This document shows, in pieces, positions 59,772-60,854 of a stretch of DNA of 64,000 nucleotides. Positions within the stretch are counted from its first letter, which is position 1. Each line of letters begins with the position of its first letter. Both the position numbers and the translations under genes were made by a program. The stretch is from Escherichia coli (GTDB lineage: Bacteria; Pseudomonadota; Gammaproteobacteria; Enterobacterales; Enterobacteriaceae). The notes below the pieces were generated by a model that was given only the letters and a program-made list of their open reading frames with translations, searched no databases and was not told where the DNA came from. Location of the stretch: assembly GCF_013315695.1 (NCBI RefSeq), contig NZ_CP054353.1. One strand, 5' to 3'.

Positions 59772-60854
59772 TTAGCGAATTGCTATTTCCGTTTCTGCAT
59801 CAAAGAAATGACATTTAGTCATATCAAAATGAATAGTGATATTTTCTCCTGCATGATAATCATTTAACGCACCAGCACGGACCACTAACTCGTGCCCCCC
59901 AACCGTGGTGTAGAGCATAAATTCCGCACCGGTTAATTCTGCCACGCTAATTTTGGCGGAAATGTTATTTTCTTCTTGCGCGTCCGGATGAATATCTTCC
60001 GGGCGTATTCCCATTACGATGGGCTTATGCAAACTTTCCTGTGTTTTCAGAACCGCTAATTTCTCTTCGGGTATGGTTAATTTAAGCGTTTCCGTAACGA
60101 ATTTATCGCCATCGATCGTGCCGCGAATAAAATTCATCGCTGGTGATCCAATAAATCCGGCAACAAACATATTCGCAGGTTGGTTATAAACCGTTTTCGG
60201 CGCACCGACTTGCTGAACAATCCCATCCTTCATAATCACAATCCGCGTCGCCATGGTCATCGCTTCGGTCTGATCGTGGGTCACGTAGATCATGGTGGTG
60301 TTCAGTTTCTGATGCAGCTTGCTGATCTCTGCGCGCATTTGCACGCGCAGCTTGGCATCCAGGTTAGAGAGCGGTTCATCCATTAAAAACACGCCCGCTT
60401 CGCGCACAATCGCCCGCCCGAGCGCCACACGCTGGCGTTGCCCGCCAGAAAGCGCGCCCGGCTTGCGTTTCAGGTACTCTCGCAGGCCGAGAATTTGCGC
60501 CGCCCAGTTCACCCGCTCATCAATCACCTCTTTGGCGATTTTTTGCATCTTCAGGCCAAACGCCATGTTGTCGTAGACCGTCATATGCGGATACAGCGCA
60601 TAGTTCTGGAACACCATCGCGATATTGCGCTCTTTAGCCGGAACGTCATTCATTCGTTTGCCGTCGATCAACAGATCGCCGCCGCTGATCTCCTCAAGCC
60701 CGGCAATCATGCGCAGCGTAGTCGATTTACCGCAGCCTGACGGACCGACAAATACAATGAACTCTTTATCGGCAATTTCCAGGTTGAAGTCCTTCACCAC
60801 ATGCACCTGGTTATCGTAGATTTTTTGAATATGTTGTAACGAAAGCTGTGCCAT
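59772..60854 (-). CDS. ycjV: Sugar ABC-transporter ATP-binding protein (MalK-like), full length
   Basis: 360-aa ORF with Walker A GPSGCGKST, signature LSGGQRQR, Walker B FLMDEP and a C-terminal regulatory domain. Confidence 0.85.
   Translation of the reverse strand: MAQLSLQHIQKIYDNQVHVVKDFNLEIADKEFIVFVGPSGCGKSTTLRMIAGLEEISGGDLLIDGKRMNDVPAKERNIAMVFQNYALYPHMTVYDNMAFGLKMQKIAKEVIDERVNWAAQILGLREYLKRKPGALSGGQRQRVALGRAIVREAGVFLMDEPLSNLDAKLRVQMRAEISKLHQKLNTTMIYVTHDQTEAMTMATRIVIMKDGIVQQVGAPKTVYNQPANMFVAGFIGSPAMNFIRGTIDGDKFVTETLKLTIPEEKLAVLKTQESLHKPIVMGIRPEDIHPDAQEENNISAKISVAELTGAEFMLYTTVGGHELVVRAGALNDYHAGENITIHFDMTKCHFFDAETEIAIR

Follow-up and report, generated by a model that had tools for sequence, protein, structure and literature searches.

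The ycjV gene described here is, with good confidence, an undamaged wild-type leftover in an operon that has been decaying since a deletion removed its permease genes. It lies in a 64,000-nucleotide stretch of DNA, referred to below as the window. The locus belongs to the Escherichia coli chromosome, and the 7 kb around ycjV was matched in 5423 of 5426 complete E. coli genomes. The gene was identified as ycjV because RefSeq genomes identical over it annotate, between pgmB and ompG, an "ABC transporter ATP-binding protein" with the accession WP_000057996.1. Its position between pgmB (ycjU) and ompG, together with a collinear BLAST alignment with K-12 (95.7%), identified it as the orthologue of the K-12 gene. 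Coordinates of all features located are given in Table 1.

Table 1. Features of the ycj region of the window, with coordinates, strand and the basis on which each was assigned
Feature	Coordinates	Strand	Basis
ycjW, intact LacI-family repressor of the cluster	57773..58771	+	ORF and annotation; role from PMC6599011
ompG, intact 301-codon porin gene, last of the operon	58822..59727	-	ORF and annotation
ycjV, nucleotide-binding subunit gene of the YcjNOP-V carbohydrate ABC importer	59772..60854	-	ORF, motifs, Pfam, NCBIfam
G6 run, codons 319-320 of ycjV (G5 in K-12)	59895..59900	-	NC_000913.3 alignment and sequence reading
H-switch His193 of YcjV	60273-60284	-	Motif reading
D-loop SNLD, aa 163-166	60357-60368	-	Motif reading
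Walker B VFLMDE, aa 155-160	60375..60392	-	Motif reading
ABC signature LSGGQ, aa 135-139	60438..60452	-	Motif reading
Q-loop Q83 of YcjV			Motif reading
Walker A/P-loop GPSGCGKS, aa 37-44	60723..60746	-	Motif reading
ycjU (pgmB, beta-phosphoglucomutase), TGA at codon 12	60868..61527, stop 61492-61494	-	Comparison with K-12 and MS 21-1
Fusion ORF, 584 aa: YcjO 1-74, hybrid Ile codon, YcjT 247-755	61524..63278	-	BLAST, translation
TGGGACCGCTACCA, candidate operator for YcjW, 17 bp before the ycjU start	61544..61557	-	K-12 comparison
ycjN, substrate-binding lipoprotein, 3' part	63299..64000, open to window edge	-	Translation matches K-12 YcjN

The ORF list and translation gave a frame of 360 codons that opens with ATG and has no internal stops. 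The six ABC motifs of YcjV follow one another in canonical order, as in an ABC nucleotide-binding domain (PF00005), and Pfam placed ABC_tran at residues 21 to 162 with 111 bits against a cutoff of 25. Further along the protein, OB_MalK (residues 236 to 288; 54.7 bits) and TOBE_2 (residues 282 to 351; 39.8 bits) both exceeded their cutoffs, giving YcjV the C-terminal OB/TOBE regulatory domain of the MalK/UgpC type (CUT1). With NCBIfam the protein could be assigned at the subfamily level only, scoring 486.9 bits against NF008653 (UgpC subfamily; cutoff, 432) and falling short of the MalK equivalog NF008233 with 432.8 bits against a threshold of 568. The first-pass annotation, which had proposed an uninterrupted 360-codon MalK-like ATPase with all ABC motifs, was thus borne out by the ORF, its translation, the motifs, and the Pfam domains. 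At this locus ycjV is an ordinary wild-type E. coli gene that appears odd only beside K-12. The gene itself is already fully catalogued, and the K-12 pseudogene stands in the reference annotation.

The locus in E. coli K-12 MG1655 (NC_000913.3), which lies likewise between ycjU and ompG and holds the same gene, is annotated as two adjacent pseudogenes, ycjV (b1318, 969 bp) and ymjB (b4524, 114 bp), which sum to 1082 bp compared with 1083 bp in the window. Alignment over these 1083 bp identified 37 substitutions and a single indel. One G missing from the G6 run produced a −1 frameshift that split the K-12 gene into ycjV' and ymjB; the K-12 frame comprises 320 native residues followed by Thr-Ser and ends at residue 322, with the loss of the last 40 residues, inside TOBE. 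The statement in the first-pass annotation that ycjV is disrupted in K-12 therefore agrees with both the NC_000913.3 pseudogene annotation and the frameshift, and the K-12 alignment that it had proposed as a check returned a split copy, not an intact ycjV of the same length. A literature search turned up no paper that calls ymjB a pseudogene; for this status the evidence is the RefSeq annotation and the present alignment. The ycjV pseudogene of K-12 serves strain engineers as a neutral integration site.

To place the two alleles among complete genomes, exact matches to short sequences spanning the G run were counted. Of the 4995 complete genomes in which this stretch is present, 4377 contain the G6 81-mer of the window. 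The corresponding K-12 80-mer with G5 was found in 369 genomes, and among the matches listed these were overwhelmingly K-12 laboratory derivatives. At the protein level, the exact 360-aa YcjV occurs on at least 1000 contigs, and its 90%-identity cluster has 3686 members, nearly all of those listed being 360 aa long. An intact ycjV is therefore the norm for E. coli and no peculiarity of the present strain, with K-12 as the exception. Most E. coli strains retain a working copy, which makes K-12 atypical here; what is concluded from that strain about the ycj sugar pathway may fail in other E. coli strains.

The G5 form of the ycjV frameshift was also seen in strains 2014C-3051 (locus positions 8087 to 9168) and 08-00022 (locus positions 587 to 1668). 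These alleles differ from that of K-12 by 21 and 5 substitutions, respectively, and both are annotated as "frameshifted". Either the G6 run has slipped repeatedly, or these are homopolymer errors of long-read assembly.

What sets the window apart is the absence of 5,175 bp relative to both K-12 and E. coli MS 21-1, as determined by BLAST, with the junction between positions 63054 and 63055. MS 21-1 is 99.93% identical to the window over 15 kb, from which it is parted by only 6 SNPs, and carries the complete ycjMNOPQRSTUV-ompG cluster. The deletion is blunt, its two sides being joined without inserted bases, and neither microhomology nor an insertion sequence was found at the junction. A nearby ATCCACA repeat was considered as the cause of the deletion and rejected, as it would require a second event.

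Lost with the deleted segment were most of ycjO, all of ycjP, ycjQ, ycjR, and ycjS, and the first 246 codons (the N-terminal third) of ycjT. Of these, ycjO and ycjP encode both permeases, ycjQ, ycjR, and ycjS encode dehydrogenases and an epimerase, and ycjT encodes kojibiose phosphorylase. K-12 keeps ycjO, ycjP, ycjQ, ycjR, ycjS, and ycjT and has a broken ycjV, whereas the window has lost these genes and its ycjV is whole. The loss amounts to 1,725 codons and preserves the reading frame, generating a fusion ORF that contains the region of the first transmembrane segment of YcjO. Pfam identified only the central (catalytic) and C-terminal domains of GH65 in the fusion, the N-terminal domain of YcjT being absent, and the PGAP annotation presents this region as two partial pseudogenes. 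With ycjO cut after codon 74 and ycjP absent, the locus does not hold a complete importer (binding protein, two permeases, and ATPase). The first-pass annotation had described the cognate permease genes as deleted and the ATPase as intact but orphaned. This was right for the permeases and the ATPase but understated the extent of the damage, which also takes in ycjQ, ycjR, ycjS, and 246 codons of ycjT, in addition to a nonsense codon in ycjU.

Only 4 of 5426 complete genomes cover in full a 100-mer spanning the junction (positions 63005 to 63104), namely those of AF3, AF14, and AF10 from UK blood cultures and that of MSB1_4I from an Australian rectal swab. The deletion is real, since the same junction recurs in independent assemblies, and it is both rare and recent; it could be used as a marker for a clade of human isolates. 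Across the 5426 complete genomes, the ycj cluster was covered to at least 80% in 4944 and had no match in 386, and partial or complete loss of ycj genes is therefore not rare. The present deletion and the stop codons that came after it are an undescribed yet ordinary strain-level variant.

The stop codon in ycjU arose at codon 12, which is TGA in the window and GGA in MS 21-1, and lies within the DxDG motif at the N terminus of the HAD fold. An 81-mer carrying this stop was matched exactly in only two of 5426 genomes, AF3 and MSB1_4I. PGAP nonetheless reports a "pgmB" of 206 aa that begins at an ATC codon, and ycjU is probably a pseudogene annotated as intact. The remaining two carriers of the deletion, AF14 and AF10, have an intact ycjU, and their codon 364 has become a stop in ycjM (G to T; locus positions 10606 to 12285). 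Since the ycjU stop is found in two of the four carriers and the ycjM stop in the other two, the deletion came first and the two sublineages then each acquired a knockout independently, a tidy small case of stepwise operon decay after loss of the core. The nonsense codon in ycjU, which adjoins ycjV upstream, indicates that the whole ycj cluster is decaying. Other genes of the cluster have so far been spared; ycjN, ompG, and ycjW are intact in all four genomes with the deletion, and MS 21-1 and all four encode the identical YcjV (WP_000057996.1). The ycjN gene runs past the edge of the window, and in AF3 it is intact and encodes 430 aa.

These observations suggest how ycjV came to stand alone. 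By homology, dimers of YcjV seated on YcjO/YcjP in the intact system would hydrolyze ATP to power uptake of a sugar brought by the lipoprotein YcjN. The deletion of 5,175 bp, a single blunt event, joined codon 74 of ycjO to codon 247 of ycjT and took with it both permeases and three catabolic enzymes. Because ycjO and ycjP are missing, the cognate transporter cannot assemble; a YcjV dimer deprived of its membrane partner would find no docking site, and no import would follow. After the deletion, the ycjU stop appeared in the sublineage of the window and the ycjM stop in its sister sublineage. YcjV, YcjN, and OmpG are still intact, most likely because there has been too little time for mutations and not because they are needed. 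The intact frame, the K-12 frameshift, the rare deletion, and the later stops were all seen directly, whereas we infer that the transport function has been lost and that ycjV is no longer under selection. Retention of ycjV as a sign of purifying selection was considered and rejected, as 6 SNPs in 15 kb relative to MS 21-1 give no power; with this number of differences the lineage is too young for a test of selection.

The operon is under the control of the YcjW repressor, for which two ChIP-seq sites and a 14-bp motif have been reported (PMC6599011). The text of that paper prints no sequence for the motif, and a candidate operator, TGGGACCGCTACCA, was put forward as the sole 14-bp near-palindrome with a central CG common to both ChIP-seq regions. 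K-12 carries identical copies ahead of both ycjM and ycjU (K-12 locus positions 2191 to 2204 and 12119 to 12132); the copy at ycjM lies 26 bp upstream of the start codon, counted from the first base of the motif. Both the positions of the candidate and its length of 14 bp agree with the reported ChIP-seq sites and motif (PMC6599011). The sequence matches the window once, the ycjU copy being situated inside the end of ycjT and surviving the deletion. With the candidate operator retained upstream of ycjU, regulated transcription of ycjU'-ycjV-ompG is possible, and ycjV and ompG may still be transcribed. Consensus scans of positions 58700 to 64000 returned two promoter-like sites where 5.8 were expected and eight terminator-like sites where 6.1 were expected, nothing above chance in either case, and the sequence therefore gives no grounds for claiming an internal promoter. 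Two of the six SNPs relative to MS 21-1 fall in ompG and are both nonsynonymous, N255K (position 58963) and D81G (position 59486), which are too few to interpret.

The fate of an ATPase left without permeases has to be weighed against what is established for its relatives. Full-length E. coli YcjV (WP_000057985.1), once purified, hydrolyzes ATP in vitro (Leisico et al. 2020; PMC7658222); that protein and the one encoded in the window are alike, and only the genomic context differs, the window being without the permease genes. YcjV is 49% identical to E. coli MalK and 49% identical to UgpC, with which it shares the architecture of an ABC domain followed by an OB/TOBE regulatory domain, although it belongs to a different operon and works with a different binding protein (YcjN). 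Unlike for MalK and UgpC, we know of no regulatory partners of YcjV. The best match among solved structures was MsmX of Bacillus subtilis (6YIR; E value, 3.7e−149). The MsmX/MsmK ATPases of Firmicutes are, like YcjV here, encoded without adjacent permease genes, but they are orphans by design that serve several importers, whereas YcjV was orphaned by a recent deletion.

From such parallels it could be argued that the orphaned YcjV is still used, docking on other CUT1 permeases (MalFG or UgpAE) as a spare or shared energizer in the manner of MsmX/MsmK. Cross-use is conceivable given the 49% identity to MalK and UgpC and the report that these two can replace each other in E. coli (PMC7658222), and the intact ycjV with its candidate operator upstream of ycjU would be in keeping with it. 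Yet MalK and UgpC are each encoded with their own system in E. coli, which leaves no evident need for a third ATPase, and K-12 lives without an intact ycjV. E. coli YcjV also failed to complement a B. subtilis msmX mutant and thus could not replace MsmX; it is hydrophobic or neutral where MsmX has the charged residues linked to multitasking (D77, R104, E110, and K154) (PMC7658222). The nonsense codon in ycjU, upstream of ycjV, may moreover cut ycjV expression by polarity, and the identity of YcjV with the protein of its relative MS 21-1 reflects only how recent the deletion is, not conservation. On balance, continued use of YcjV by other permeases is unlikely. Survival of YcjV by selection, whether as a second ATPase for MalFG/UgpAE-type permeases or through maintenance of ycjU-ycjV-ompG as a YcjW-controlled unit that has an operator of its own, is quite unlikely.

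It is very unlikely that the deletion itself was selected, for instance because altered expression of ycjU-ycjV-ompG yielded more of the large-channel porin OmpG, with ycjV merely carried along. In K-12, OmpG is switched on by the classical cog mutation, itself a deletion in the ycj region. The deletion in the window is in frame and makes no premature stop that would cause polarity, but an in-frame outcome has a one-in-three chance; ompG, ycjW, and the candidate operator are all kept, but the later stops of ycjU and ycjM suggest that selection on the cluster has been relaxed, and the one in ycjU, being upstream of ompG, would if anything reduce ompG expression. The share of SNPs that fall in ompG, two nonsynonymous changes out of six, could be read as a response to selection, but the counts are far too small for inference, and the deletion is present in just 4 of 5426 genomes. 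An assembly or sequencing artifact, either in the deletion or in the intact frame, is hardly credible. Homopolymers such as G6 are error prone in long-read assemblies, and the G5 of two unrelated genomes could be such an error, but G6 is present in 4377 genomes and G5 is repeated in hundreds of K-12 assemblies. Four complete genomes from two countries, each sequenced independently, share the junction with the window base for base.

Elsewhere in the window, the region from about 5800 to 33400 contains a Rac-like prophage remnant (recE, recT, kilR, sieB, ralR, xisR, and a frameshifted intR) according to the AF3 annotation. The same region carries three copies of IS1A and the sitABCD iron/manganese transporter genes and adjoins ompN, uspF, and ttcA. 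Its content was taken from AF3, whose gene coordinates agreed with those of the window wherever they were checked.
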